DNA from: Myxococcales bacterium
GTDB taxonomy: Bacteria > Myxococcota_A > UBA9042
Assembly (NCBI GenBank): GCA_037441385.1
Contig: JBBISH010000003.1
Span: 47,192 to 111,191 of the forward strand
Length of the DNA: 64,000 bases
Direction of reading: 5' to 3'
The notes under the pieces are model-generated. The model did no database searches, was not told where the DNA came from, and saw nothing but the letters and a program-made list of their open reading frames with translations. Below are positions 46,693 through 59,631 of this stretch, in pieces (positions within the stretch are counted from its first letter, which is position 1; each line of letters begins with the position of its first letter). The translations under genes and the position numbers were made by a program.

Positions 46693-46965
46693 CTACTTCA
46701 GGTGCTCGACGCCGACCTTCTTGACGGTGGCCTTCCAGACCTTGGCGGGCAGCCACTTTGGGCGATTGGCGGGAGCCGTGGTCTCGACGCGGCCGCCGTT
46801 GAACACGTGCACGCGCTTGGTGCCGCGCTCGCGCAGGCGAATCTCGGTGTAGCCGCGGGCCGCAGCCTTCAGGGCCGCGCCGCGCGGTTGGGCGTTCGAG
46901 AAGACCACGTTGGTGTCCTTGCCTTCCTGCATCAATACGAAATTCTTCTTCTCTTTCTCTGCCAT
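46693..46965 (-). CDS. Chromosomal protein MC1-family DNA-binding protein (archaeal chromatin protein homologue)
   Basis: 90 aa. …NFVLMQEGKD…VFSNAQPRGAALKAAARGYTEIRLRERGTKRVHVFNG… closely matches my recollection of Methanosarcina MC1 (…FVLRDE…GVFTGKQPRQAALKAANRG…IRLRERGTKKVHVF…), recalled from memory and not aligned. Start verified on the minus strand; a longer ORF-track extension is Arg-rich junk. Confidence 0.75.
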   Translation of the reverse strand: MAEKEKKNFVLMQEGKDTNVVFSNAQPRGAALKAAARGYTEIRLRERGTKRVHVFNGGRVETTAPANRPKWLPAKVWKATVKKVGVEHLK

Positions 46966-47361: not shown

Positions 47362-47434
47362 TTTCAACGCGTTATATGTAGAGCGTCTGCAGTTCAACGA
47401 TTTGGCGGCGCGGCGCGAGCGGCGATTTCCCCAT

Positions 47435-47467
47435 GATCACGGTACGCGAGGGCCGTGATCGTTTTTT
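47435..47467 (+). terminator. Rho-independent terminator / attenuator hairpin GATCACGG-N10-CCGTGATC followed by T6
   Basis: Perfect 8-bp stem plus TTTTTT, about 75-100 nt downstream of the promoter candidate and 255 nt upstream of the slt start. It overlaps the first codons of the spurious ORF-track start at 47433. Confidence 0.5.
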
Positions 47468-47723
47468 GCTGGTCGCGCACAGAATCGCCGGGCGCGGCCC
47501 GCGGTATGGGCCCATTTTGCGTACACCAGCCGGGCGCCGCTCGCCAACGCGCTTGGGACTTCGCCTGATTATTCAGCAGTTGCAAACGGCTCGCGAACTG
47601 GTCAAGTCCGACAATCGTGCTACCGTAGCGGCACGGCAGCATGCAAGCCCTGGCGTGGCGAGCAAGGTGGTGTGGGTGGGCCAGCACAGGGCGAACGCAA
47701 CCAGGGGAGCAGCCGCGTGGCCA

Positions 47724-50225
47724 ATGTGGGCTGCGGTGGGGATCCTGCTTTGGCACGCGGCCGCGACACCGGCTTGGGCGGTGGCTGCGCACGCGCGGGC
47801 CAAGAGTGGCAAGACAGCGGCCGCCAAGGCCGTGCCAACCAAGGCAGCCAAGCCGGCGAGTGCAAAGGGGAAGCCGGCCACTAGCAAGACGTCTGGCGGC
47901 GCGACTGCCAAGAACTCGGGCACAAAGCCGAAACCAGGCAAGGCCAAGGCGGCGGGGAGCGGCAAAAAGGTCAAGGCCGGCAAGACCAAGACGCCCAAAG
48001 TCCCGGCGCACGCGGCGCGAGTGGTGCCCAGCCAAAAACGCAGCCAAGACGGTCGGTCGCACCACGACCACCGCGCCAAATGGGCGCAATTGCACGAACT
48101 GATTCAGCGCTTTCGCGTTGGGGCGTTGGCGGGACTAGACGGCAAGTTGCGCGGCCTGATCGACGGCGCCCAAGGCGATGTGGCACTGGCGGGTTCGCTG
48201 GTGCTGGCACGCACGCAAGCGAGCCTTCGGACTGGTGATCTTGGTGTCCAGGCCTTGGAGGACGCCAAGCCGCTGCGCCAAGCCCTGCCGGCCAGTTGGG
48301 ACTGGGCCCAGATCGAGGTGGACTACGCTGCCGGTCATTTCGGCCAAGCCCTGGAGCACATGCGCGAGTTCCGTAAACAATACGGTGATTTTCGCTGGGC
48401 GGCCGCCGATCTTCTTTATAGCCGGCTTGCCGAGCGGGTCGCGCCCCCCCAAGAGGTCGCGGAGATTGCCCTGGCGCTCTACGAGAAATCGGCGCTGCAC
48501 CTGCCCCGCGACGAGCTGCTGGCGCGCGCGGCCCGGGCCAGCGAGCAGATCGCCGGCCCCAAAGCCATGGGACTATGGCGAAAACTGCTTCTGCAACACC
48601 CAGAGAGCGAGTTCGTCGCCGAAGCCGCGAGCCACGTTGACGTGTCAACCTTGACCGACCCCGAGAACTACGACCGCATGGCGTTGCTGTTTGCGCGCCG
48701 CGCGTACGAGCGCTGCCGCGAGGTCGGAAAGCCCTTGTGGTTCAAGGGATATCGGCTAAGCGAGGTGGGCTACTACCTGGGCAAGATCGGCTCGGAGCGG
48801 CTGCGCGACGACTACCCGGGGGCGGCGGACTACTTGCAGGCGGCCAGTGTGGTCGACGCTCCCCATGCGGCCGCAGCCCTGTCGTCGTATGCCCTGGTGC
48901 TGGGCAAGCTGGGGCGTTTTGACGAGTCGATCGCCAAGTACGACGAATGGCTGCAGCGCTACCCCGCGGTGGGCAACGAGCGCCGGGTCGAACTGCACTA
49001 CGATCGCGCCCGCATGCTGCACGTTTCGGGCAAAAGCCTGCAGGCGGCCGAGGACATGGCCAAGGCGCTCGCGGCCGATGATCGCGGGATCGACGTGGGC
49101 AAGTATCAGTGGTTCGTAGGCTTTTGGTACTACCTGGGCAAGGACTACGGCCGCGCGCTCGAAGCGATGAAACCGCTGCTGGCCAACCCCAACCCGCTGG
49201 TGGGCGGCAAGGCCAACTACTGGACGGCCAAGGCCCTGGATCGCCTGGACCGCCGCGACGAGGCGGTGACGACACTGGACGGGCTGCTGCGGCGCTACCC
49301 CCTGACCTACTACAGCGCCTTGGGCGAGCGGCTCTTGGTCGATTGGGGCAAGGTCGATCACGTGCCCAAAGCTCAGGATTTCTCAAAGGTGATCGATGCC
49401 GCGCCCGATCCGTTTGCCGATCTGGCCGCCGATCCGCAGCTGGACCAGTTGCGCCTGGCCTGCGCGGTGGGCGAGCCCGACAGTTGCCAAGTCGCTTGGG
49501 ACGCGGCCGAAAAGAACCTGCGCAAGCTGCTGGGCGACGACGCGGTGCAAAAACTCCAACGCGAACTGGCCGACCCGCTCGAGCGCTACGCCGATGCGCG
49601 CGAAGAGGCGCTGCGGCAGAACGGCCATGTTTTGCTCAAGTTGCCCACGACCCAGACGCTGGCGGACTGGCGTGCCATCTACCCGCGCGCGTTTGCCACC
49701 CATACGGCCGCGGCAGCCAAGCGGTCGGGCGCGCCCGAGTGGATGATCTACGCCCACATGCTGCAGGAATCGCGCTACAAACCCTGGCTGATCTCGGGGG
49801 CGCCCGCGTACGGGCTGCTGGAGCTGCTGGACCGCACGGCCGCGCGCCTGGCCAAAGAGGCGGGCGACGACTACCAGCTGTGGATGCTGATGCAGCCGCG
49901 CTACAACATCGCGTGGGGCGGCCGCTATCTGGGCGCACTTTATCACAAATTCCACAAGCAGCTGCCGTTCGCCATCGCCAGCTACAACGGCGGGCCAATG
50001 CTGATGGAGTACCACCTGGGTGTGCAAAAGCGACTGCGGCGCGATTTTGACGAACTGATCGACGACCTGGGCCCGCACGAAAGCCGCAATTACGTGCGCA
50101 TGGTCATCGGCTGGTTCTTGCGGTACTTGGCGATCTACGAGAGCCCGAAACGGGCCGCCGAACTGCGCGACGAGCTTCTGCCGCGGCAGTGGTCAGCGGA
50201 ATTTGAACCCGAACCGAATTACTGA
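47724..50225 (+). CDS. slt: Soluble lytic murein transglycosylase (Slt70-like) with Lys/Ala/Pro-rich N-terminal region
   Basis: Signal peptide MWAAVGILLWHAAATPAWA. Lys/Ala-rich segment (AKSGKTAAAKAVPTKAAKPASAKGKPATSK…), superhelical repeat region, and C-terminal SLT domain with catalytic Glu …YAHMLQESRYKP…AIASYNGGP…. Confidence 0.8.
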   Translation: MWAAVGILLWHAAATPAWAVAAHARAKSGKTAAAKAVPTKAAKPASAKGKPATSKTSGGATAKNSGTKPKPGKAKAAGSGKKVKAGKTKTPKVPAHAARVVPSQKRSQDGRSHHDHRAKWAQLHELIQRFRVGALAGLDGKLRGLIDGAQGDVALAGSLVLARTQASLRTGDLGVQALEDAKPLRQALPASWDWAQIEVDYAAGHFGQALEHMREFRKQYGDFRWAAADLLYSRLAERVAPPQEVAEIALALYEKSALHLPRDELLARAARASEQIAGPKAMGLWRKLLLQHPESEFVAEAASHVDVSTLTDPENYDRMALLFARRAYERCREVGKPLWFKGYRLSEVGYYLGKIGSERLRDDYPGAADYLQAASVVDAPHAAAALSSYALVLGKLGRFDESIAKYDEWLQRYPAVGNERRVELHYDRARMLHVSGKSLQAAEDMAKALAADDRGIDVGKYQWFVGFWYYLGKDYGRALEAMKPLLANPNPLVGGKANYWTAKALDRLDRRDEAVTTLDGLLRRYPLTYYSALGERLLVDWGKVDHVPKAQDFSKVIDAAPDPFADLAADPQLDQLRLACAVGEPDSCQVAWDAAEKNLRKLLGDDAVQKLQRELADPLERYADAREEALRQNGHVLLKLPTTQTLADWRAIYPRAFATHTAAAAKRSGAPEWMIYAHMLQESRYKPWLISGAPAYGLLELLDRTAARLAKEAGDDYQLWMLMQPRYNIAWGGRYLGALYHKFHKQLPFAIASYNGGPMLMEYHLGVQKRLRRDFDELIDDLGPHESRNYVRMVIGWFLRYLAIYESPKRAAELRDELLPRQWSAEFEPEPNY

Positions 50226-50234
50226 GCGGGCCAG

Positions 50235-51782
50235 CTACTTCTGCAGGCTGCAGTAGCTCGGCCAGCTGTCGCCCAGGCTGCTGACGAAGGGCGAAGCCTC
50301 GCCCAACTTGTGCGCGAGCAGGAACTTGGCCGCGTAGGCGCCGCCCTCTTTGGGCCACTCGTGCTTGGTGCCGTGGTTGCAGGCGACGACCACGTGGCCC
50401 GAGCCCTTCAGGCTCTCGATCAACGACTTGGCCATCTTGTCGAAGTTCTGCTCGTAGGCAAAGTCGTCCACACCGCCCCAGCTGACGACAAACGGCACGT
50501 TGCCCGACTTGGTGGGCCAGGCGTGCAGGTAGCCGCCCGAGAACGGCGTCGCCGCGGCCACCACATCGCTCTTGTGGATGCCCAGGAAGGTCGACATCAG
50601 GCCGCCGCCCGACATGCCGGTCACGTAGATGCGCTTGGTGTCAAACTTGTACTGCGCGCCGGCGCACTTGAGCAGATCGTCAAAGAACACTAGGTCGGGG
50701 TTGTCGTTCTTGAACAGCGGCGAGCCGTAGTACCAGTCGGTCTTCAGCACGGCCTTGCCCGAAGCGGCGCGCTCGGAGCGGGGCGCGATCAGGATGAACG
50801 GCGTCTTCTGCTGCTCGGCAGTCAGGAAGCTGTCGTCGATCATCGAGCCCGGCTCGCCACCCACGCCGTGGTACAGGAAGATCACCGGCAGACCGGTCAC
50901 ATCGCTGACATCTTTGGGCAGCTGCACGATGTAGGTACGGCTGCGCTCGGCGCTGGTCATGGTGTTCTCGCCGGGCAGGAGAGCCGGGCAAGTCGCGATG
51001 CCGGTGTAAGTCTTGGCGGTGTTGCCTTCGCAGCTGGACTCGGGCGGATCGGTTTGCGTGCCGAACTCGACGGCCTTGAACTTGCTGCCGGTCAGCTTGA
51101 CGCCAAAGTCGGGAACGTTGCCTTCCAAGTCGCCGCAGAACGAATTGAGGCCCGTGAACTTGCCGGTCATGATTAGGCTCAGCTTGACGTCGGTGTCGGT
51201 GGGCGAGCCCTTGGCCGGTAGCACCACGTCGCCAAAGTCGATGGTGAACGAGCCATCGGCCTTGACGACCACGTCGCACGCTGCGGCCATGATGTCCGTG
51301 ACTTCCTTGGTCTTACCCGAAACGGCGCGCAGGGTGATCAGCTTCATCACGCCGCCGCCATCGGCGGTCTGATGGCCGACGATGCTGGCCTTGAAGAACA
51401 GCTGCAAACCGCCGAACGGCGCGGCCTGGGCAGCCAGGAACAGGCCTTGCGGCGGGGTCAATTTGTCGTCGCCAGCCACCGCCGCGGCCTCGTCGGCGTA
51501 CTTGCCGCACCACTTGGTGGGCCCGGTGGCGGTGTCGGCGCTGGTCGTGTCGCCGCCCGCAGTGTCGGCGCCGGTCGTGTCGGCGCCGGTCGTGTCGGCG
51601 CTGGTGGTGTCGCCGCTGGTGGTGTCGCCGCCTTTGGCGTCGGTGCCGCTGGAACTATCCGAGCTAGCGTCGGTTTTGCTGGTCGTGCTGGTGGTGGTTC
51701 CGGCGTCGCTGCCACAGGCGGCCAAGGCCAGCGCCAGACCGGCGCTCAAGAAACCGCAGGAAATTCGGGTACTAAGCTTCAT
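50235..51782 (-). CDS. Esterase lipoprotein, PHB-depolymerase/feruloyl-esterase-like alpha/beta hydrolase
   Basis: Start MKLSTRISCGFLSAGLALALAAC (lipobox), then a Ser/Thr/Asp/Gly-rich linker. Catalytic region …VIFLYHGVGGEPG… with nucleophile elbow GMSGGG. Confidence 0.75.
   Translation of the reverse strand: MKLSTRISCGFLSAGLALALAACGSDAGTTTSTTSKTDASSDSSSGTDAKGGDTTSGDTTSADTTGADTTGADTAGGDTTSADTATGPTKWCGKYADEAAAVAGDDKLTPPQGLFLAAQAAPFGGLQLFFKASIVGHQTADGGGVMKLITLRAVSGKTKEVTDIMAAACDVVVKADGSFTIDFGDVVLPAKGSPTDTDVKLSLIMTGKFTGLNSFCGDLEGNVPDFGVKLTGSKFKAVEFGTQTDPPESSCEGNTAKTYTGIATCPALLPGENTMTSAERSRTYIVQLPKDVSDVTGLPVIFLYHGVGGEPGSMIDDSFLTAEQQKTPFILIAPRSERAASGKAVLKTDWYYGSPLFKNDNPDLVFFDDLLKCAGAQYKFDTKRIYVTGMSGGGLMSTFLGIHKSDVVAAATPFSGGYLHAWPTKSGNVPFVVSWGGVDDFAYEQNFDKMAKSLIESLKGSGHVVVACNHGTKHEWPKEGGAYAAKFLLAHKLGEASPFVSSLGDSWPSYCSLQK
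51535..51640. repeat. About 15-nt tandem DNA repeats (GGTCGTGTCGGCGCC-like) encoding the TTSADTTGADTTGAD linker of the esterase
   Basis: Seen directly; coding low-complexity on the minus strand. Confidence 0.6.
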
Positions 51783-51879
51783 CGTCGTGTTCCATGCAAA
51801 GGGGGTGGTGCCGCAAAGGCTACAGGCCACGGCGGGTCCGCGCAAGTCAGAAGGCGCGCGATCGCGACAGAGGTGCGGC

Positions 51880-52923
51880 GACTTTGCTATGCTGGCCACG
51901 GAGGTGTGGATGCTAGGGCGCGTGCGGATTGTGCTGGGCGGCTTCGCCTTGCTCTTGGTCTGCGTGGGGCTGACGGGCTGTGCCGGCTCGTCGGGGAGCA
52001 GCGACACGGGCAACGCCAGCGATGCCAAGACGGCCGATTTGCCGGGCGACGTGACCGACACGACTCCCCGCGTGCTGGTGGGCGGCGCCGACGATGGCGG
52101 CAACGGGTTCATCGACTGGGCCAGCGGCACCTACCCGGCCACGGTCATCCACGGCCCGCAAGGCGGCCAGCACATCTGGGTCAGCGCCAAGACTAGGAAC
52201 TTGTTCCCCAACAAGGCGCGGATCTCGGTCACGATGTACCTGGAAACGCCCGGCGCCGCCGAAGAAGTGGTCAAACCGGGCACGACCACCGTGACCGGCA
52301 CGCTGAAGGCCTTTCCCGCCCCGCCCGAACTGCCCAGCGAGTGGCTCATCTACGCTGGCCTGCCGGCCTTTGTCAGCCAACCCTGCAAACTGGCCCAACA
52401 AAAGGTGCGGGTCCAGGTCGAGGTCAGCGACCTCTACGGGGTACTGGCGAGCAACAAGGCCTGGATTCGCCCCAAGTGGACGTTTATGCCGTGCGTGGTG
52501 GCGATGGGGGTGGCGGCGGACGGCAAGAGCCCGCAACCGTGGCCGTTCTTCCCGGACGAGGGCGCCAAGCCGGCCCTGGTGGCTGCGCCCAGCGGCGGAG
52601 CGGAATTCCAAGTTGGCGTGCGGACTTTGGGCCTAGCGCCGGCCGCCCCGATGGTGGCGGTCACGCTGATGACCATGCCCACGGACAACACGGAAGGCCA
52701 GATTCTGCCGCCGGGCCGCACGGCGGTGACGACCAGCGCCATCGCGGATCCGCTTGGCGTGGCAGGTTGGTCCGGCCTGGCGGCGGTAAAGGTGCCGGTG
52801 GCGAACCCCTGCCAGGCCAAGAATCAGCGGCTGCGGCTGGTGGTCGAAGTGGCCGACGGGGACAAGCCGTTGGGGTCCGGGCAATCGATCGTCTTGCCCA
52901 GCTGGGGTGGCACGTGTCCGTGA
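51880..52923 (+). CDS. Lipoprotein with duplicated uncharacterised ~130-aa module
   Basis: Signal peptide with lipobox LTGC. Module 1 is GNGFIDWASG…GPQGGQHIWVSAKT…PAFVSQPCKLAQQKVRVQVEVSD…WIRP; module 2 ends …PVANPCQAKNQRLRLVVEVADGD…. Confidence 0.55.
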   Translation, partial: DFAMLATEVWMLGRVRIVLGGFALLLVCVGLTGCAGSSGSSDTGNASDAKTADLPGDVTDTTPRVLVGGADDGGNGFIDWASGTYPATVIHGPQGGQHIWVSAKTRNLFPNKARISVTMYLETPGAAEEVVKPGTTTVTGTLKAFPAPPELPSEWLIYAGLPAFVSQPCKLAQQKVRVQVEVSDLYGVLASNKAWIRPKWTFMPCVVAMGVAADGKSPQPWPFFPDEGAKPALVAAPSGGAEFQVGVRTLGLAPAAPMVAVTLMTMPTDNTEGQILPPGRTAVTTSAIADPLGVAGWSGLAAVKVPVANPCQAKNQRLRLVVEVADGDKPLGSGQSIVLPSWGGTCP

Positions 52924-52931
52924 GCCGCAAG

Positions 52932-53414
52932 ATGTGGCCTCTTTTCGCCGCTTTGGCCGTGGGTTGCGCGAGTTCCACGGGCACGGCCGAGGACCCGCTG
53001 CTGGTCCAGGTCGGCGGCGCCAGCCCAAGCGGCAACGGTTTTGTCGACTGGTCAACCCTGGGTACCGGCGCCGCGATCATCACCGGCATCCAAGGCGGCC
53101 AGCACATTTGGGTCAGCGCCCGCGCCAAGCTGGCGGGTGCTACCACGCTCGACGTGGCCGTCACGATGTACCGCGAGGCCACCGGCGGGCAAGCCGAAGC
53201 GATGGTCAAGCCCGGCACGGTCGAAATCCAGCGCAAAGCCGAAACGGATGGTGCGTGGCAAGTACTGGCCGGCGTCCCGGCTTTTGTCAAGGAACCCTGC
53301 AAGATCCGCGAGCATCGCGTGCGGGTTGAAGCCGTGGTGCGGACGGGCGACGGGCGCACGGCCGCAGCCAAGGCGTGGATCACGCCGCATTTCGACGGCT
53401 ACTGCGATCCGTGA
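52932..53414 (+). CDS. Lipoprotein, single-module paralogue of the upstream gene
   Basis: Lipobox LAVGC. GNGFVDWSTLG…GIQGGQHIWVSARA…PAFVKEPCKIREHRVRVEAVVRTGDG…WITPHFDGYC parallels module 1 of 51880-52923. Confidence 0.55.
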   Translation: MWPLFAALAVGCASSTGTAEDPLLVQVGGASPSGNGFVDWSTLGTGAAIITGIQGGQHIWVSARAKLAGATTLDVAVTMYREATGGQAEAMVKPGTVEIQRKAETDGAWQVLAGVPAFVKEPCKIREHRVRVEAVVRTGDGRTAAAKAWITPHFDGYCDP

Positions 53415-53469
53415 TCGGCCTGCCCACAGGGCGTCCACATTGGCACGGGAGTTGCGGTCGGCAGTTCAG

Positions 53470-55170
53470 CTACGCCGGCCCTTCAGCAAGGTGGGGGGGC
53501 ACGGCCGGGGCTTCGCTCCAAACTGCCACTTCGGCGGCCACGGCAGGCGGCGCGACCTGCTGGCGGACCGGCACGGCGTCCATGGCGTGCTCGGCCAAAG
53601 CCGTGATGGTCAAGCTGGGATTGACGCCCAAATTCGCCGGAATCACCGAGCCATCGCAGACGCGCAAGCCGTGGTAGCCGTGCACGCGCTGCTGGGCATC
53701 CACCACGCCCTGCCCGGGCGCGCCGATGGCGCAGCCGCCCAAAATGTGGGCCGTGGTCGGCACATCCAGCAGCACTTCGTTGATGGCGGACATGGGCACG
53801 CCGCTGGTCTTTTCGGCCAGGCGGCGGGCGACGCGATTGCCCACGGGGATGTAGGTCGGGTTGGCCGATTTGCCCGCCGGCAGTTGTGTGCGCAAGGACT
53901 TGGCAAAGGGCCACCACCAGCGGCGCTTCCACACCGCGGTCAGCGAGTTGTCGAGCGTCTGCATCACCAGCAAGATGATGCCGTGCTTGGCCCAGCCGAA
54001 CTTCCAGCAGGTCTTGGCGAACTGGATCGGATGGGCGAACACAGTCCCAACCCAGCGCAAAGCCCGGGGAATCTTGCCGCCACCGTCGGTGAGCAGCGTG
54101 GCCAACAGGCTCAAAGCGTCGTGCCCTTCGCCATAGCGCACCACCTCGATGTGGGTGTGATCGTCAAAAAACGCGCCCGAAGTGATCGCCACACCCTTGC
54201 TGAAGTCCTCGCCGTTCGAGCTGCCCATCGCGCCGCAGATGGCTTCGCTGTTGGTGCGCAGTTGGTGGCCCAGTGTCGCCGGCAGGTCAGGTAAATCGCC
54301 GCAGTCCTTGGACTTCATTAGCAAAGGCAGCGTACCCAACACGCCGCCCGCGCAGACCACCTCGCGGGCGCGCAGTCGAGTGGTGCGGCCAAGCCAACGC
54401 GCCACGCCGATCGCGGGCCGGATTTCCACCTCGTAGCCGTCTTCGCCGCGGCGAGCCGGACCGCCAAGGCAACGCAGCGCCGTGACCAGCGACTCGGGCC
54501 GAACTTGAGCGCCCAGACGCTCGGCCAAGTACAGGTAATTTTTGTCCAACGTGTTCTTGGCGCCGTGTTTGCACCCCGTCATGCAAGCGCCGCACTGGTG
54601 GCAGCCCGTACGGTCCGGGCCGACACCGCTAAAGTACGGATCGGCCACCGTGCGACCGGGTTCGCCAAAGAACACACCGACATCGGTAGCCTTGAAGGTG
54701 TGCTCGCGGCCCATCTCGACCGCCACTTCGCGCAGCAACCGGTCGGCCGGGCCAAACACCGGGTTGGGCACCGCCCCCAGCATCAGCTTGGCCCGCTGGT
54801 AGTAAGGCGCCAATTCTACTTGCCAATCCGGCGAGAGGCTGGCCCATTGCGGGTCCGTGAAGAACGGCTTGGGCGGCACCAGCAACGTGTTCGCGTAGAC
54901 CAGCGAACCGCCGCCCACGCCCACGCCCGACAGCACCAACACGTCGTCTAGCAAGGTGATCTTCAGGATGCCGACGCAATAGGCCAGGGGCGCCCACAGC
55001 GAACGGAACAAGTTCCAGTTGGACTTGGGAAAATCCTTGGCGGCCCAGCGCTTGCCGCGCTCGACCACGATCACCTTGTAGCCTTTTTCGCTGAGCCGCA
55101 GGGCCGACACCGACCCGCCGAAGCCCGAGCCGATTACCAGTACATCGCAATCGAACCGCGCTTCTTCCAT
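53470..55170 (-). CDS. GMC-family FAD-dependent oxidoreductase (cholesterol oxidase/choline dehydrogenase-like)
   Basis: Start MEEARFDCDVLVIGSGFGGSVSALRL (FAD GxGxxG); start verified on the minus strand. C-terminal GMC region with …H..G.c.MG…. Confidence 0.85.
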   Translation of the reverse strand: MEEARFDCDVLVIGSGFGGSVSALRLSEKGYKVIVVERGKRWAAKDFPKSNWNLFRSLWAPLAYCVGILKITLLDDVLVLSGVGVGGGSLVYANTLLVPPKPFFTDPQWASLSPDWQVELAPYYQRAKLMLGAVPNPVFGPADRLLREVAVEMGREHTFKATDVGVFFGEPGRTVADPYFSGVGPDRTGCHQCGACMTGCKHGAKNTLDKNYLYLAERLGAQVRPESLVTALRCLGGPARRGEDGYEVEIRPAIGVARWLGRTTRLRAREVVCAGGVLGTLPLLMKSKDCGDLPDLPATLGHQLRTNSEAICGAMGSSNGEDFSKGVAITSGAFFDDHTHIEVVRYGEGHDALSLLATLLTDGGGKIPRALRWVGTVFAHPIQFAKTCWKFGWAKHGIILLVMQTLDNSLTAVWKRRWWWPFAKSLRTQLPAGKSANPTYIPVGNRVARRLAEKTSGVPMSAINEVLLDVPTTAHILGGCAIGAPGQGVVDAQQRVHGYHGLRVCDGSVIPANLGVNPSLTITALAEHAMDAVPVRQQVAPPAVAAEVAVWSEAPAVPPHLAEGPA

Positions 55171-55186
55171 GTGGGCTCCTGGGCGG

Positions 55187-56908
55187 CTACTTCCCCTCGC
55201 TGGCCTTGGTGTCCGGGGCCTCGCCGTGGGCGATGTAGGCGCGCGCGTGTTTCCAACCGTAGTACTTCGTCGCGTAGTCCAGCACCATGCGCCGCGCCGA
55301 GAACTGGGGCGCCGTGGCGACCGCAGCCATCTGCATCTTCCGCCAGGCGGCCTTCTCGCCATAATACGTTGGAAGCACGCGCTGTTCCAGGGCACTATAC
55401 AGGGCCTCGGCGTCGCGATCGTCGTCGCGGACCTCTTCGTCTTGGCCGATCGCCCAGCCGTTCCAGCCGTCGACGCAGCCCTCGGCCCACCAGCCGTCCA
55501 GCACGCTCAGGTTGGGCACGCCGTTCAGCGCCGCCTTCATGCCCGAGGTTCCGCAGGCCTCCAGCGGACGGACAGGGTTGTTCAACCACACATCCACGCC
55601 GGCGGTCAGCTTGTGCCCCAGCCACATGTTGTAGTTGGTCAAGAAGCCGATCCGCAGCTCGCCGCGCAGCTTGTGCGACATGGCCAGGATGTCGCGGACC
55701 AGCTTGCGGCCCTCGCCGTCCTTGTCGTGCGCCTTGCCGGCAAACAGGATCTGCAGCTTGCCGCCCGCCAGGCCGATCAAGCGGTCCAGGTTGCGGAAGA
55801 CCAGGTTGGCGCGCTTGTAGCTGGCCATGCGCCGGGCAAAGCCAATGGTCAGCACGTCGGGGTCAAAGCCCAGCTGGGTCATGCCGTTGGCGTACTCCAG
55901 CAGTTCCATCTTGGCGCGGCGGCGGGCGCGGGTGAACGCCTCTGGGTCCACACCGCCAATGTGGTGCAGCACTTCGTGGTTGTCGCGCCAGCCGTGCAGG
56001 TGGTAGTCGAACAGCGCACCCATTTCCGGCGCGACCCAGGTGTCGAAGTGCACGCCGTTGGTCACCGCCTCGATCTCCAACGGCGCCGGGCGACCTTCGC
56101 TGAGGTGCGCCGAGGTGAACAGCGGATTGGCCACGCGCGCGTTGATCACCGACACGCCGTTGACGTGGTCGGCCAGCGAGGCGGCCAGCCACGCCATGTT
56201 TAGCGTCTCGGCCCCGCCCAAGTGCGCGACTTTGGGCGGCACGTGCAGGCCCACGATACGCTGGACATCGCGGTGATCAAAGCGATCGAAGCCCGCTGGC
56301 ACCGGCGTGTGGGTGGTAAAGTGAACGCGCTTGCGCGTCTCGGCCACCGAACCGATGTCCTTGAGCATCGCCGCCGCGAACAGCGCGGTGTGGCCTTCGT
56401 TCAGGTGCGCGTACAGATCCTCGTTGTAGCCCAAAGCCTTGATCGCCTCGTAGCCGCCCAGGCCCAGCACGGCTTCTTGGCGAAGGCGGTTCAGCACGTC
56501 GCCGCCGTACAGCAGGTTGGACACCGGGCGCCACACGGGCGAGTTGCCTTCGACGTCGGTGTCCAAGAACAGCACGGGCACGCCATGGCCGTGGCGACCG
56601 CGCACCCACCGGCGCCAGATCTTGATGCGCACGATCTCGGCCTCGAGTTCAAGCTGCACAACCGTGCCCGTGTCCTCCAGCACATCGGCCGGATCACAAA
56701 GCGGAAAGTCCAGGTGCTGCTCGCCGTAGACGTCGACCGACTGCATGCCATAGCCCTGCTTGTAGAACAGGGTCACGCCGATCAACGGCAGTCCGACATC
56801 GGCCGCGGCCTTGACATGATCGCCGGCCAAGACGCCCAGGCCGCCGGAATAGGTAGGAACTGCCGTGGTGAGACCGATTTCGGCGGTGACGTATGCAATA
56901 TGCCTCAC
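55187..56908 (-). CDS. glgP: Alpha-glucan phosphorylase (GT35, short 'alpha-glucan family' type)
   Basis: N-terminus MRHIAYVTAEIGLTTAVPTYSGGLGVLAGDHVKAA… and PLP-binding region …ACGTSGMKAALNGVPNLSVLDGWW…. Confidence 0.9.
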   Translation of the reverse strand: MRHIAYVTAEIGLTTAVPTYSGGLGVLAGDHVKAAADVGLPLIGVTLFYKQGYGMQSVDVYGEQHLDFPLCDPADVLEDTGTVVQLELEAEIVRIKIWRRWVRGRHGHGVPVLFLDTDVEGNSPVWRPVSNLLYGGDVLNRLRQEAVLGLGGYEAIKALGYNEDLYAHLNEGHTALFAAAMLKDIGSVAETRKRVHFTTHTPVPAGFDRFDHRDVQRIVGLHVPPKVAHLGGAETLNMAWLAASLADHVNGVSVINARVANPLFTSAHLSEGRPAPLEIEAVTNGVHFDTWVAPEMGALFDYHLHGWRDNHEVLHHIGGVDPEAFTRARRRAKMELLEYANGMTQLGFDPDVLTIGFARRMASYKRANLVFRNLDRLIGLAGGKLQILFAGKAHDKDGEGRKLVRDILAMSHKLRGELRIGFLTNYNMWLGHKLTAGVDVWLNNPVRPLEACGTSGMKAALNGVPNLSVLDGWWAEGCVDGWNGWAIGQDEEVRDDDRDAEALYSALEQRVLPTYYGEKAAWRKMQMAAVATAPQFSARRMVLDYATKYYGWKHARAYIAHGEAPDTKASEGK

Positions 56909-56938
56909 GAGATATACTCCTTGTTGCTTGCGAACTTG

Positions 56939-57937
56939 TTAGTACGGACGGTAGCCCGGTGCATAGCCTGGGGGATAGGTGCCTGGGGGATAGGTGCCCG
57001 GGGGATAGGCGCCCGGCGGATAGGCGCCCGGCGGATAGGCGCCCGGCGGTGGATAGGGAGGAGGAGGGGGCGCTGGGCGAAAACTGCGACTTTTCAGCAT
57101 GTCCCAGCTTGGCCACGTGATCGATAGGCCGATCAGGCCCATGACCGGCGGCAGGTTGAATTGGGCCGAAAGCGTGCCCTTCTGGTTTTGCTGCACGACA
57201 AAGTTGGCGTCGCTGAGGACATGGAAGTCCTTGCTCGTCACGCGCCCTTGCGAATCGTAGCCGCCTTGCGTCGCGGTGATCACCAGGTCTTCGGATCGCG
57301 AGCTGCCCTGCGTCAGGCGCGCCGACACCTGGACAAAGGCGTGCGCCCACCAGGCCAAGGTGTATTCCGCGCCGCCGGTCAAGTACCAACCGGTGCGACT
57401 CTCTTTGGAGGTGTACTTGACCGCGTCGCCGTTCTGGATGATGGCGTTGCCGATGCTCACCGGGTCCTGGATCGCCAGCTTGTAGTTGGCCTCTACCTTG
57501 GCGTCTAGATTGAGCCAGCTGATGCCCGCCAACGCGCGCAGACGGCCGTCGCCGCTGGCCAGCGGGTGCTTGTACAGCGCGTCGACTTGCAGCATGTCCA
57601 GGTTGGCTTCGCTGGACAGACCCGGCGCAACCACAAGCCGTGCAAAGGGGAAATCGAGCCCCAGCGGAATCTGCGTCATGCTACCCGTGGGACCGACCTT
57701 GCCGCTTTGCGGGGCCAGTTTGACCGGCAGCGTGAAGGCCTTGCCGGACCAACCCGGCGGGCTCGTCGCGACCATGTCGACGCCAGAAAACGTATACGCG
57801 CCGTCCACTTTGGGGGTCATGACGGTCTGCTGTACGCCCACGCTGCAGCCAGCAACGGCCGCTGCGACGAGCAGGGCGGTACTGGCCCTGACCAGACTGC
57901 GCCGCATTCCGATTGCGCCTGCCACGCCGGTCGGCAT
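56939..57937 (-). CDS. Lipoprotein with C-terminal tandem Y-P-P-G repeats
   Basis: Lipobox VAGC. Beta-rich body, then C-terminus …PPPPPYPPPGAYPPGAYPPGAYPPGTYPPGTYPPGYAPGYRPY. Confidence 0.55.
   Translation of the reverse strand: MPTGVAGAIGMRRSLVRASTALLVAAAVAGCSVGVQQTVMTPKVDGAYTFSGVDMVATSPPGWSGKAFTLPVKLAPQSGKVGPTGSMTQIPLGLDFPFARLVVAPGLSSEANLDMLQVDALYKHPLASGDGRLRALAGISWLNLDAKVEANYKLAIQDPVSIGNAIIQNGDAVKYTSKESRTGWYLTGGAEYTLAWWAHAFVQVSARLTQGSSRSEDLVITATQGGYDSQGRVTSKDFHVLSDANFVVQQNQKGTLSAQFNLPPVMGLIGLSITWPSWDMLKSRSFRPAPPPPPYPPPGAYPPGAYPPGAYPPGTYPPGTYPPGYAPGYRPY
56965..57050. repeat. Tandem 15-nt DNA repeat (GGATAGGTGCCTGGG-like ×5-6) encoding the YPPGA repeats
   Basis: Seen directly; coding on the minus strand. 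Confidence 0.6.
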
Positions 57938-57938
57938 C

Positions 57939-58622
57939 TCAGACCTCGTCCAAAGAGTGGATCAGACGGGGACCGCGATCGACCGGTGCGGGCGCCGCGG
58001 CGTCGCCGCTACCGCCGGTCAGCTGCGCGTATTCCCAGATCATGTCGTTCAGAAGCGCAACGGCTTCGCTGGGATCCACCGCTTCGGCCGGCATGCGCCG
58101 GCACAGGACCACGGCGACCTCGTCTTCGTTGATCGGCAGCAAGCCCAGCGAGCAAGTCATCAGGCGCGGGTTCAGGGCAAACAGCGAAACCCCGCCGTCG
58201 GCCGCCGCAGCCTCTTCCCAGGGCCCCACGATGACGGCGCACAACAGCGCAACCCCCACTGCTGCATCGGGCTCTAGGACCAGAATGCACGTGGCTTCGT
58301 GGCCGGGGTGGACAAACGACAGTGCTACGGCGTCGGTGGCGGCGTCCAGGTCGACGGCGACGTCTGGAATCGCAGCCTCTACGGCCTGCTGCAGGCGCTC
58401 GCCTAGTTGCTGCAAGTTGAACACGAACGTCACCGCGCGGGCGCTGGCCCAGGCGCAGGGTACGGGGTTGCCGGGCACGAGACAAGTCCGGCGCCGCTGT
58501 GCGAGTTGAAGGTTTTGCGGCAGCGTCGCATGATCGCGGCGGCCGTGAATCGAATGCGCTGCGTCGGCGTAGAAGGGCCAGCGGCGTTGCGCGCCCAGCC
58601 GATCGCGATCAGGGGGTTCCAT
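57939..58622 (-). CDS. Hypothetical protein, possibly YbjN-like; first gene of the glgP/GMC operon
   Basis: Start MEPPDRDRLG; no catalytic motif. 1-nt gap to the downstream lipoprotein gene. Its start overlaps the divergent + strand start at 58621 by 2 nt, so one of the two starts may be wrong. Confidence 0.35.
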   Translation of the reverse strand: MEPPDRDRLGAQRRWPFYADAAHSIHGRRDHATLPQNLQLAQRRRTCLVPGNPVPCAWASARAVTFVFNLQQLGERLQQAVEAAIPDVAVDLDAATDAVALSFVHPGHEATCILVLEPDAAVGVALLCAVIVGPWEEAAAADGGVSLFALNPRLMTCSLGLLPINEDEVAVVLCRRMPAEAVDPSEAVALLNDMIWEYAQLTGGSGDAAAPAPVDRGPRLIHSLDEV

Positions 58623-59631
58623 GCAGGGTATCGGTGCAGCGATCGCAAAGAAGGGTTGGCGGCTCGGCCCGACCGTCGCAGCACTGGCGGCACTGCTCAC
58701 GCTCGCCAGTTGCGGAACCAGCACCGTGAGCATGATGGCCGTGCGGCCCGCCATCCTGAACGCGCAGGCGTACGGCGGCACCGTCAGCGTCGCGGGCTTT
58801 GCGCCGGCCCACCCGGACTATGCACTCATTTCCGGGCAGTTCCGCAACGAAGTCGCCGAACGGATCGCCGGCGGCGTGGGCGGAACGGTCCGGCTCTTGG
58901 AGTACGGCGGCGGCCTGGTGATCAGCGGCCGGGTCGAGGCGTATACCGCGCAGCTGCACGCCCACGAGCGCCTGACGACCTGCACCGACAGCGTCAGCGT
59001 GGACGGCGGAAAATCGAGCGCAACCAAGAATATCGAGCGCCCATGCGCTTGGCGCTGGCTCGACTGGCAATGCAGGGTGGTGGTCACGGCCCAGGTCACC
59101 GATCCGTCAGGCCGCGTGCTGATCATCCGGCCGATTTCGTACGAACGCAGCGGCAGCACGACCCAAGTGCGCGACGCAGCCCCAGTACCCCCCAACTTGC
59201 ACCCGATCCTGCAGGAATTGCGCTTGCGTGCCGCCGAAGAGGTGGCCTGGTTGGTCACGCCGCACCACGAGCGGGTCAACGCCGTCTTCTACGACTGCCA
59301 GAAGCCCGCCACGGCTGCGTGCGAATTCGGCGTCAAGCGCATGGCCGAGGCCCGCTACGACGAGGCGGTGGCTGCCTTTACAGACGCCCTGGCACAGCTG
59401 GAGCGGGCGGGCGCTTCGGCGGCGGATCGCGCCAAAGTGCTATGGAACCGGGCGATTGTGCTGCAATTCTCGCGACGCTTCGACGAGGCAGTCGCGGACC
59501 TGCAAGCCGCCCATCGGCTGGATCCGCAGGACGAATACCGCGATCAAATCGCCGTGGTCGAGCGCGAGCGCGCCGCCCACCAACAGCTTCTGGAACAGGG
59601 TCTGGGGCCACAGCCGCAGGCACCAAAGTAG
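58621..59631 (+). CDS. Lipoprotein with C-terminal TPR-like helical region
   Basis: Signal peptide with lipobox LASC. C-terminal …ARYDEAVAAFTDALAQ…NRAIVLQFSRRFDEAVADLQAAHRLDP… is TPR-like. Confidence 0.5.
   Translation: MQGIGAAIAKKGWRLGPTVAALAALLTLASCGTSTVSMMAVRPAILNAQAYGGTVSVAGFAPAHPDYALISGQFRNEVAERIAGGVGGTVRLLEYGGGLVISGRVEAYTAQLHAHERLTTCTDSVSVDGGKSSATKNIERPCAWRWLDWQCRVVVTAQVTDPSGRVLIIRPISYERSGSTTQVRDAAPVPPNLHPILQELRLRAAEEVAWLVTPHHERVNAVFYDCQKPATAACEFGVKRMAEARYDEAVAAFTDALAQLERAGASAADRAKVLWNRAIVLQFSRRFDEAVADLQAAHRLDPQDEYRDQIAVVERERAAHQQLLEQGLGPQPQAPK

Follow-up and report, generated by a model that had tools for sequence, protein, structure and literature searches.

The window analyzed here, a 64-kb stretch of DNA from an uncultured member of the Myxococcota, carries two adjacent open reading frames on the plus strand, each beginning with a lipoprotein signal peptide, as the first-pass annotation of this DNA had described. 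Gene 1 (51910..52923, +), defined from the reading frame and its translation, encodes a two-module lipoprotein of 337 amino acids. Its ATG at 51910 lies 5 nt downstream of a GGAGG at 51900-51904; both the ATG and this Shine-Dalgarno sequence are kept in two orthologous loci (L008 and L009), and a public collection holds an identical 337-aa protein (P0173) with the same start. The gene had been drawn from position 51880 to give 347 aa, but the codon at 51880 is GAC, which is no start. Gene 2 (52920..53414, +) encodes a single-module lipoprotein of 164 aa from a GTG that overlaps the stop of gene 1 as GTGA. An alternative ATG at 52932 gives 160 aa, the length of the deposited call for the product (P0001) and of the first-pass gene model; the end of that model is correct, but GTG 52920 is the more likely start because the positively charged n-region comes from it and orthologues begin at the equivalent position. 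In one relative, the counterparts of genes 1 and 2 have an overlap of 10 bp. Since genes 1 and 2 abut or overlap, they are probably transcribed together.

The signal peptide and lipobox of gene 1 (51910..51981, +) read MLGRVRIVLGGFALLLVCVGLTG followed by C24, with a positive n-region, a hydrophobic core, and the lipobox L-T-G-C; the N terminus can be written MLGRVRIVLGGFALLLVCVG-LTG-C24 and ends ...LLLVCVGLTG-C24, and the AF2 model places a helix at residues 5-19. The corresponding region of gene 2 (52920..52967, +) reads VSRKMWPLFAALAVG followed by C16, that is, VSRKMWPLFAAL-AVG-C16, ending ...FAALAVG-C16, and C16 is invariant among 23 relatives. On inspection, both proteins have the features of Sec/SPase II substrates, namely, a positive n-region, a hydrophobic h-region, and a lipobox of the form [LVI][ASTVI][GAS]-C. 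A lipobox-like motif occurs in 110 of the 169 family proteins, many of the 169 being truncated. Both proteins are therefore predicted to be lipidated after Sec export, at C24 and C16, respectively. Their anchoring membrane is probably the outer membrane, because neither has a Lys at position +2, which is the sorting rule of Myxococcus xanthus. In gene 1 the lipobox is followed by a Ser/Gly/Asp/Thr-rich disordered tether (aa 25-52; 51982..52065, +; pLDDT of <50 at residues 20-48), whose dN/dS of 0.35-0.42 is relaxed compared with that of the modules.

Three homologous modules

Together the two proteins contain three homologous modules, each with a length of about 140 aa: two in gene 1 (g1N and g1C) and one in gene 2 (g2). 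Module 1 (aa 53-195; 52066..52494, +) is canonical, is modeled as a beta-sandwich, and is 44% identical to the module of gene 2 in BLASTP. Module 2 (aa 196-337; 52495..52920, +) is degenerate, with identities of 25% to g2 and 31% to g1N. Module 3 (gene 2, aa 27-164; 52998..53411, +) is again canonical, with an all-beta sandwich in the AF2 model (pLDDT of 88, pTM of 0.79). The Smith-Waterman z scores were 43 for g1N versus g2, 13 for g1C versus g2, and 16.5 for g1C versus g1N, and none of 1000 composition-preserving shuffles reached the observed score. Moreover, a profile built from single-module relatives alone recognized both halves of gene 1 (4e-60 for module 1 and 2.8e-13 for module 2), and low-complexity alignment, which had been named as grounds for discarding the repeat, therefore does not explain it. 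The thrice-repeated module, with two copies in gene 1 and a third in gene 2, is thus well founded.

The signature of the modules is located at aa 82-90 in module 1 (GPQGGQHIW; 52153..52179, +) and at aa 56-64 in module 3 (GIQGGQHIW; 53085..53111, +). In module 2, which is C-terminal in gene 1, the sequence SGGAEFQVGV stands where the signature is expected. The core GNGF.DW...G.QGGQHIWVSA, which had been assigned to every module, is accordingly present in modules 1 and 3 but not in module 2. Across 175 family domains, the positions of G-x-Q-G-G-x-H-x-W are conserved at 98% (G), 97% (Q), 95% (G), 86% (G), 98% (H), and 90% (W), and the signature is found in 147 of 169 family proteins. This conservation suggests that the signature forms a ligand contact site, although the strictly invariant Gln and His might just as well serve in catalysis or bind a metal or a cofactor. 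The dN/dS values are 0.09-0.16 for module 1, 0.12-0.22 for module 2, and 0.14-0.19 for module 3, and module 2 is therefore under purifying selection despite the loss of its signature.

Each module also has the pair of cysteines that the first-pass annotation had noticed, one in a 'PC' motif and one at the C-terminal end, 35-36 residues apart: C159/C195 in module 1 (codons 52384-52386 and 52492-52494), C301/C336 in module 2, and C127/C162 in module 3 (codons 53298-53300 and 53403-53405). The two Cys columns occur together in 89 of 90 domains (Fisher P = 3e-18, uncorrected for phylogeny), which suggests one disulfide per module, from the 'PC' Cys to the C-terminal Cys. The positions of the cysteines vary between branches of the family, and many members have no Cys other than that of the lipobox.

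Family distribution and fold

A profile search retrieved 395 cluster representatives (clusters at 50% identity), and all relatives with a named source come from uncultured Myxococcota genomes. Tandem arrays of two or three module genes also occur at other Myxococcota loci. Among 10 relatives scanned for fused domains, fusions were rare; they occur in secreted multidomain proteins and combine the module with a trypsin-like protease in one case and with FG-GAP/ASPIC in the other, as an accessory binding module would be expected to do. The family is real and conserved and is without a counterpart in our Pfam, NCBIfam, and PDB searches, in agreement with the earlier impression that the module corresponds to no recognized domain. 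Pfam-A 2025 gave no match for either protein at E values of up to 10, and only isolated chance matches were found when 110 relatives were scanned with Pfam. The single match in NCBIfam 20.0 scored 8.6 bits against a cutoff of 250 and covered the signal peptide together with the beginning of the mature protein. A PDB sequence search with a single sequence found no match, and with a 110-sequence profile it found only de novo designed Ig domains (E of ~0.004), explained by generic beta-strand patterning. Cluster look-ups and a further homology search gave only the name "hypothetical protein," and the literature held nothing on DUF2330 (see below) or on the signature motif strings. A candidate fourth copy at 1570-2226 of the window (E = 0.002) was rejected, as only the signal-peptide region of the lipoprotein encoded there, which is helical and unrelated, was matched.

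The AF2 models of both proteins are beta-sandwiches, with pLDDT values of 88 for gene 2 and 80 for gene 1, and both domains of gene 1 and the domain of gene 2 have a common order of strands and a short helix. In these models the module belongs to the Ig-like/fn3/MG class of beta-sandwiches, with two sheets and about seven strands, and can be superposed on known structures of this class. Foldseek against the PDB gave only weak matches (AGS-C, a transglutaminase beta-barrel, and the TEAD YBD; TM of ≤0.44), and the resemblance to the TEAD lipid pocket was too weak to build on.

Genomic context

Upstream of gene 1 lies the gene of an esterase lipoprotein of the PHB-depolymerase family (50235-51782, −). 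It had been described as convergent with the lipoprotein pair, but it is divergent from gene 1, and the convergent neighbor is instead a GMC oxidoreductase. The region between the divergent genes (51783..51909) is conserved: across the window, L008, and L009, the 206 nt at 51720-51925 have a mean identity of 80% with long invariant blocks, and the synonymous divergence of the flanking genes is 0.65-1.3. This region presumably holds a promoter/operator and a 5' leader. No Rfam model matched within 49500-54500, and neither a sigma-70 consensus promoter nor an intrinsic terminator above shuffle expectation was found at the locus.

The GMC oxidoreductase and an alpha-glucan phosphorylase do lie beside the pair, as had been noted, but the functional hint taken from this adjacency fails, since both genes are on the opposite strand and their position can be explained by inherited gene order. 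Neither the phosphorylase nor the cholesterol-oxidase-like GMC enzyme has an obvious signal peptide as judged by eye. Adjacency to a GMC gene occurs at 9 distinct loci including the window, plus 7 loci with the phosphorylase, and the orientation is always convergent. The idea that the GMC enzyme and the module are functionally linked was rejected: the constant convergent orientation fits a single ancestral arrangement, and a different GMC subfamily is found near one distant member. An SLT lytic transglycosylase gene also neighbors the pair in the window; it and the esterase gene are neighbors only in the closest relatives. The window-type module genes form a stand-alone transcription unit between opposite-strand genes, and their operon context is therefore uninformative on function. 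With the esterase divergent and the GMC and phosphorylase genes on the opposite strand, the neighborhood no longer hints at carbohydrate or polymer binding as had been argued; it speaks neither for nor against such a function, and polymer binding is possible.

Across the superfamily, just two kinds of gene were found as same-strand operon partners, one for a DsbD-like reductase and one for DUF2330. The former occurs in a distant branch, A5, which is clearly homologous to the window-type family (HHalign, 97.6%, E = 4e-12 over 129 columns). At 23 of the 29 loci with enough upstream sequence, the A5 module gene lies directly downstream, on the same strand, of a gene for a DsbD_TM-thioredoxin fusion. 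The alignment of this fusion to the DsbD profile begins only near position 170, and DsbD's own Ig-like domain is therefore missing from it. The A5 modules have two invariant cysteines. DsbD-like or DUF2330 genes were found neither in the 64-kb window nor adjoining the window-type relatives, and no closely spaced Cys pair of the redox type was found (spacing of 35-36 residues; many family members have no such pair).

Discussion

We propose that the pair are paralogous, probably cotranscribed lipoproteins built of three undescribed Ig-like modules, with a non-enzymatic binding or adaptor role in the cell envelope, a reading to which we give about an even chance. According to this proposal, the proteins would be exported by Sec, lipidated at C24 and C16, and anchored in the membrane so as to face the periplasm or be displayed at the cell surface. 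The turn and strand of the signature in modules 1 and 3 would contact the ligand, and module 2, which has lost the signature, may serve as a structural spacer or a domain for contact with a partner. The modules themselves would act as binding or adaptor units and, we infer, without catalysis.

A more specific form of binding would make the modules stand-alone CBM-like lectin domains that tether exopolysaccharide, peptidoglycan, or a storage polymer to the membrane, with the Trp stacking on a sugar ring and the Gln, His, and Arg hydrogen bonding to hydroxyls or carboxylates. Chemically, the conserved W/H/Q/R residues are suited to binding sugars, and in the window the pair is neighbored by the SLT lytic transglycosylase and by the PHB-depolymerase-family esterase, which has the conserved divergent promoter region in common with gene 1. 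However, the adjacency of these two genes does not extend beyond the closest relatives, the phosphorylase and the GMC enzyme are encoded on the opposite strand and have no signal peptide obvious to the eye, and the superfamily's same-strand partners (DsbD-like reductase and DUF2330) are of another kind. In addition, structural matches to CBMs, at 7-9% identity, were no better than those to complement MG, adhesin repeat, or fn3 domains; the Pfam CBM models matched neither the window proteins nor any of 110 relatives at E values of up to 0.1; and a CAZyme or glycoside hydrolase was fused in 0 of the 10 relatives scanned. We therefore regard the lectin function as unlikely, although it deserves more weight than the readings that follow.

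The operon link in the A5 branch raises another set of ideas. In the broadest of them, the signature beta-sandwich would be an unrecognized class of envelope domain working with thiol-reductase machinery, in which the A5 copy replaces the missing Ig-like output domain of DsbD or is a dedicated client; the window pair would then be a duplicated, specialized offshoot of a Myxococcota-wide envelope redox or maturation pathway, its Gln/His/Trp site holding a substrate or cofactor. This scenario strikes us as improbable. We hold it to be slightly more doubtful still that the modules of the pair act directly as an envelope redox partner, either as a stand-alone nDsbD counterpart or as client or adaptor proteins dedicated to a DsbD-type reductase, with the window pair as a paralogous offshoot using a reductase encoded elsewhere. 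The 23 of 29 A5 loci downstream of a fusion lacking the Ig-like domain and the two invariant A5 cysteines are consistent with such a partner, but neither the window nor the surroundings of its relatives offer a DsbD-like or DUF2330 gene, and with Cys variable or absent in the family, thiol chemistry cannot be the family-wide function. A CX5C motif is a feature of nDsbD in E. coli DsbD, and judged by their sequences the modules appear to have no motif of this type. The A5 link would also suit a redox-active cargo, and a further reading has the modules carry a metal, heme, or small cofactor, with the His, together with Gln and Trp, ligating or stacking on a metal ion or tetrapyrrole, as in small beta-sandwich periplasmic chaperones and hemophore-like lipoproteins. 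In its favor, the module is a small secreted beta-sandwich with one His that is 98-100% conserved and is neighbored by the invariant Gln and the conserved Trp. However, this His is the one potential strong ligand residue conserved family-wide, with no conserved Met, Cys, or second His beside it, and no PCuAC, CopC, YcnI, NEAT, or LPMO model was matched in Pfam. The mature N terminus would be the lipidated Cys, and hence a His brace at residue 1 is impossible. We consider a carrier function the least probable of these readings.

The window pair alone is an ordinary lineage-specific duplication of lipoproteins and does not overturn current understanding. Provided that the family proves to be as it now appears, however, it adds a sizeable, well-defined domain family, with 395 clusters and a sharp signature, to the uncharacterized envelope proteome of the Myxococcota, a phylum with complex surface biology. 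It also offers testable handles: the signature, the high-confidence models, a copy in gene 1 that is naturally "motif-dead," and the sister-branch operon link to a DsbD reductase without nDsbD.

Compared with known systems, the module is closest in general architecture to generic Ig-like, fn3, and MG domains, such as the MG domains of C3, TEP1, and bacterial alpha-2-macroglobulin and the Ig-like domains of GH2 enzymes. However, identities to these are only 5-13%, with no match at the profile level; the G-x-Q-G-G-x-H-x-W and PC...C pattern is specific to the module family, and the module stands free on a lipoprotein, whereas the generic domains are parts of a large enzyme or opsonin. The porphyran- and agarose-binding CBMs 8wae and 8wac are not known to have glycan-binding residues in common with the module, to which they are 7-9% identical; the module has no glycoside hydrolase attached, and the structural scores are indistinguishable from those of Ig-like folds that are not CBMs. 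The ester- and isopeptide-bond adhesin repeats (Cpe0147 4mkm, 8f9l, 8dj2, and 5u6f) differ in that a cross-link partner, whether Thr, Ser, or Lys, is not conserved in the module family. A cross-link through the invariant Gln was rejected, as the conservation of Thr, Ser, and Lys stays below 65% in every column family-wide. In ester domains the His is upstream of the Gln, and the order in the module motif, Q-G-G-x-H, is different. The known examples of these adhesins are Gram-positive LPXTG fibers, whereas the modules sit on short lipoproteins. Finally, nDsbD, the Ig-like N-terminal domain that serves as the electron-output module of DsbD, is, like the predicted module, a periplasmic Ig-like beta-sandwich.

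RESULTS

Two lipoprotein genes carrying three copies of one module

The stretch (window G+C of about 67%) contains two same-strand ORFs, which are probably co-transcribed, paralogous lipoprotein genes. Gene 1 runs from ATG 51910 to 52923 (+). The first-pass annotation had placed its start at 51880, where the codon is GAC; the real start is indicated by a GGAGG 5 nt 5' of ATG 51910, by the invariance of this ATG and its Shine-Dalgarno sequence in two orthologous loci, and by a protein in a public collection (P0173) that is exactly the 337-aa product. Gene 2 starts at GTG 52920 or ATG 52932 and ends at 53414 (+). The ATG is the deposited 160-aa call (P0001), but the GTG is the likelier start. 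It forms a GTGA overlap with the stop codon of gene 1, contributes the Arg/Lys residues of the signal peptide's n-region, and lies at the position at which the orthologues begin; in one relative, the two counterparts overlap by 10 bp. Textbook lipoboxes were seen by inspection in both products (LTG-C24 in gene 1 and AVG-C16 in gene 2).

Local alignment scores of the modules were compared with those of 1000 composition-preserving shuffles, none of which attained the observed scores (z = 43 for the gene 1 N-module versus gene 2, 13 for the C-module versus gene 2, and 16.5 for the C-module versus the N-module). The corresponding BLASTP identities were 44%, 25%, and 31%, and a profile made only from the single-module relatives of gene 2 matched both halves of gene 1 (4e-60 and 2.8e-13). 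The three-copy repeat noticed earlier is thus real, and a low-complexity artefact is ruled out by the shuffle and profile tests. The core GNGF.DW...G.QGGQHIWVSA, which had been ascribed to every module, is present in the N-module and gene 2 but not in the C-module, which reads SGGAEFQVGV in its place, while the "PC" cysteine and the C-terminal cysteine are kept in all three, as had been described.

All three copies are under purifying selection in the comparison of the window with the two orthologous loci. The dN/dS values were 0.09 to 0.16 for the N-module, 0.12 to 0.22 for the degenerate C-module, 0.14 to 0.19 for gene 2, and 0.35 to 0.42 for the gene 1 tether, which indicates that the motif-less module is maintained rather than decaying.

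Gene 1 is separated from a divergent lipoprotein esterase gene by 127 bp (51783-51909). The enclosing 206-nt region (51720-51925) has a mean identity of 80% across three genomes, and the intergenic segment contains long invariant blocks, such as CGCAAAGGCTACAGGCC, GGTCCGCGCAAG, TCGCGACAG, and ACTTTGCTATGCTG, whereas dS at the synonymous sites of the flanking genes is 0.65 to 1.3. This contrast points to a putative conserved promoter/operator or leader; the segment gave no Rfam match and showed no sigma-70 consensus.

Fold, sequence family, and distribution of the module

The AlphaFold2 model of gene 2 (23-sequence alignment) is a confident all-beta sandwich (pLDDT 88, pTM 0.79), and that of gene 1 (pLDDT 80) consists of a signal helix, a disordered tether (residues 20 to 48), and two sandwiches with identical strand order and the same short helix directly after the PC motif, which indicates that the degenerate C-module retains the fold. 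Foldseek matches in the PDB were weak (best E = 2e-4, TM ≤0.44). Neither protein matched Pfam-A or NCBIfam, no match was found in PDB sequence searches with the single sequence or a 110-sequence profile, and a Pfam scan of 110 relatives gave single chance matches only. The three copies represent a previously undescribed Ig-like domain.

A word-indexed homology search returned 23 close relatives for gene 2 and 5 two-module relatives for gene 1, all "hypothetical," and when a profile was run with full HMMER against 1.84 billion cluster representatives, 395 matched at E ≤1e-3 and 79 at ≤1e-10, most of them 150 to 200 aa long. The signature G-x-Q-G-G-x-H-x-W was found in 147/169 family proteins and is strongly conserved over 175 domains (G 98%, Q 97%, G 95%, G 86%, H 98%, W 90%), followed by a mostly conserved S-x-R. 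The cysteine pattern varies by branch, with none in some; in the PC-cysteine branches, the PC and C-terminal cysteines co-occur in 89/90 domains, which supports, without proving, a structural disulfide, and we infer that each module would be disulfide-stapled. Rare fusions join the module to a trypsin-like protease or an FG-GAP/ASPIC protein.

When each GTDB species, represented by a single genome, was scanned for a sequence pattern, 27 loci were found, all from metagenome-assembled genomes, largely of lakes and groundwater, and mostly labelled Myxococcales, Myxococcota, or Deltaproteobacteria, with a few implausible automatic labels. Those distant members that have a named source come from Labilithrix and Polyangiales. 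Among relatives of named source, the family is limited to uncultured Myxococcota, and these surveys found no cultured organism carrying a member.

Genomic neighborhood

Upstream lie a TPR-SLT lytic transglycosylase gene (Pfam SLT domain; 47433-50225, +) and the PHB-depolymerase-family esterase gene (50235-51782, -). The esterase had been taken to be convergent with the pair; it is divergent from gene 1, and the convergent neighbor is a GMC oxidoreductase gene (about 53470-55170, -), full-length to a cholesterol-oxidase model at a sub-cut-off score (632 versus 850 bits), next to an alpha-glucan phosphorylase gene (TIGR02094; 55187-56908, -). The esterase is itself a lipoprotein (MKLSTRISCGFLSAGLALALAA-C), in which a C-terminal PHB-depolymerase-family domain, scoring below curated cut-offs, is preceded by a middle region without annotation and by a long linker of Thr/Asp/Gly/Ser-rich repeats (...GDTTSGDTTSADTTGADTTGADTAGGDTTSADTATG...). 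The GMC and phosphorylase genes belong to an apparent operon (53470-58781, -) that encodes, in this order, a 280-aa hypothetical protein, a 332-aa OMP beta-barrel-like protein whose tail consists of PPGAY/PPGTY repeats, the phosphorylase, and the GMC oxidoreductase. This order is kept across Myxococcota genomes in which these proteins are just 55 to 65% identical, and the combination of enzymes is an odd one. A 90-aa ORF (46693-46965, -), flanked by the SLT gene and a TatA-like gene, matches the archaeal chromatin protein MC1 over its full length (PF05854, E = 1.1e-28, 99.8 bits) and recurs at the same place in one related Myxococcota contig; such an archaeal nucleoid protein homologue is unusual for a myxobacterial genome.

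Throughout the 31 distinct loci of the window-type branch, module genes occur singly or as tandem arrays of two or three and stand alone, with genes of the opposite strand on either side, so operon logic is uninformative on the function of the window type. Only the window and its closest relatives have a pair of genes of which the first encodes two modules. Tandem arrays of two or three genes with one module each in other Myxococcales (L019, L020, L023, and L031) indicate that tandem duplication is recurrent and not peculiar to this lineage.

Distant branches

A metagenome scan seeded by a distant subfamily, with neighboring ORFs clustered and annotated with Pfam and NCBIfam, gave 80 loci and two recurrent same-strand operons. 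One, found in 34 loci (within L042-L113, e.g., L069:3708-6387 and L085:2506-6441), encodes, in this order, a TPR protein, a DsbD_TM-thioredoxin fusion, and a module lipoprotein, and occurs in 23/29 of those loci of the DsbD-linked branch for which 1.5 kb or more of sequence was available upstream. The match of its DsbD-like protein to the DsbD profile begins at about position 170, so this protein lacks the Ig-like domain found at the N terminus of DsbD. Modules in this branch contain two cysteines that are invariant, and their homology to the window type is clear and extends along the entire domain (HHalign 97.6%, E = 4e-12, 129 columns); some of the lipoproteins have an additional N-terminal domain, Cys-rich and about 150 aa long. 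The other operon, DUF2330 (PF10092) followed by the module, was found in 11 loci. In the DUF2330-linked loci (L035, L084, L071, L087/L091, L114, L098, and L032), the two genes are often on the same strand and overlap in some, and a DsbD-like gene is never also present. No literature on DUF2330 was found in the library searched.

DISCUSSION

Lys at +2 is the rule for inner-membrane retention in M. xanthus. Since neither protein has it, the two proteins, which would be lipidated, probably reside on the outer membrane, facing the periplasm or the surface. The signature may form a binding site, and the motif-less C-module might act as a spacer or scaffold; alternatively, the conserved motif could be purely structural. 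Taken as a whole, a set of lipidated, disulfide-stapled, non-enzymatic binding or adaptor modules that bind through the signature has, in our judgment, about an even chance of being correct.

A glycan or polymer as the ligand, as first proposed from the neighboring enzymes, seems unlikely to us. The immediate convergent downstream neighbor is the GMC oxidoreductase gene in 9 of 31 distinct related loci (window counted) and the phosphorylase gene in 7 further ones, even with a different upstream flank. However, this pattern would fit a single ancestral arrangement from which the GMC gene was later lost, genes in convergent orientation do not share a transcript, and no obvious signal peptide was seen by eye on either enzyme, so the adjacency is weak evidence at best. 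That the window branch works with a thiol reductase, as the DsbD-linked operon might suggest, is improbable: neither a DsbD-like nor a DUF2330 gene lies within the window, and these partners are therefore a lead for the superfamily, not evidence on the window genes. A metal or cofactor bound at the signature is the least probable of these ligands and partners.

The module, with its invariant Q-G-G-x-H-x-W site, its motif-dead copy, and a sister-branch operon encoding a DsbD without nDsbD, is a reasonable rather than a striking target. It is a new sequence family whose fold is very common, its phylum is rich in uncharacterized lipoproteins, and as such it will not surprise a specialist.
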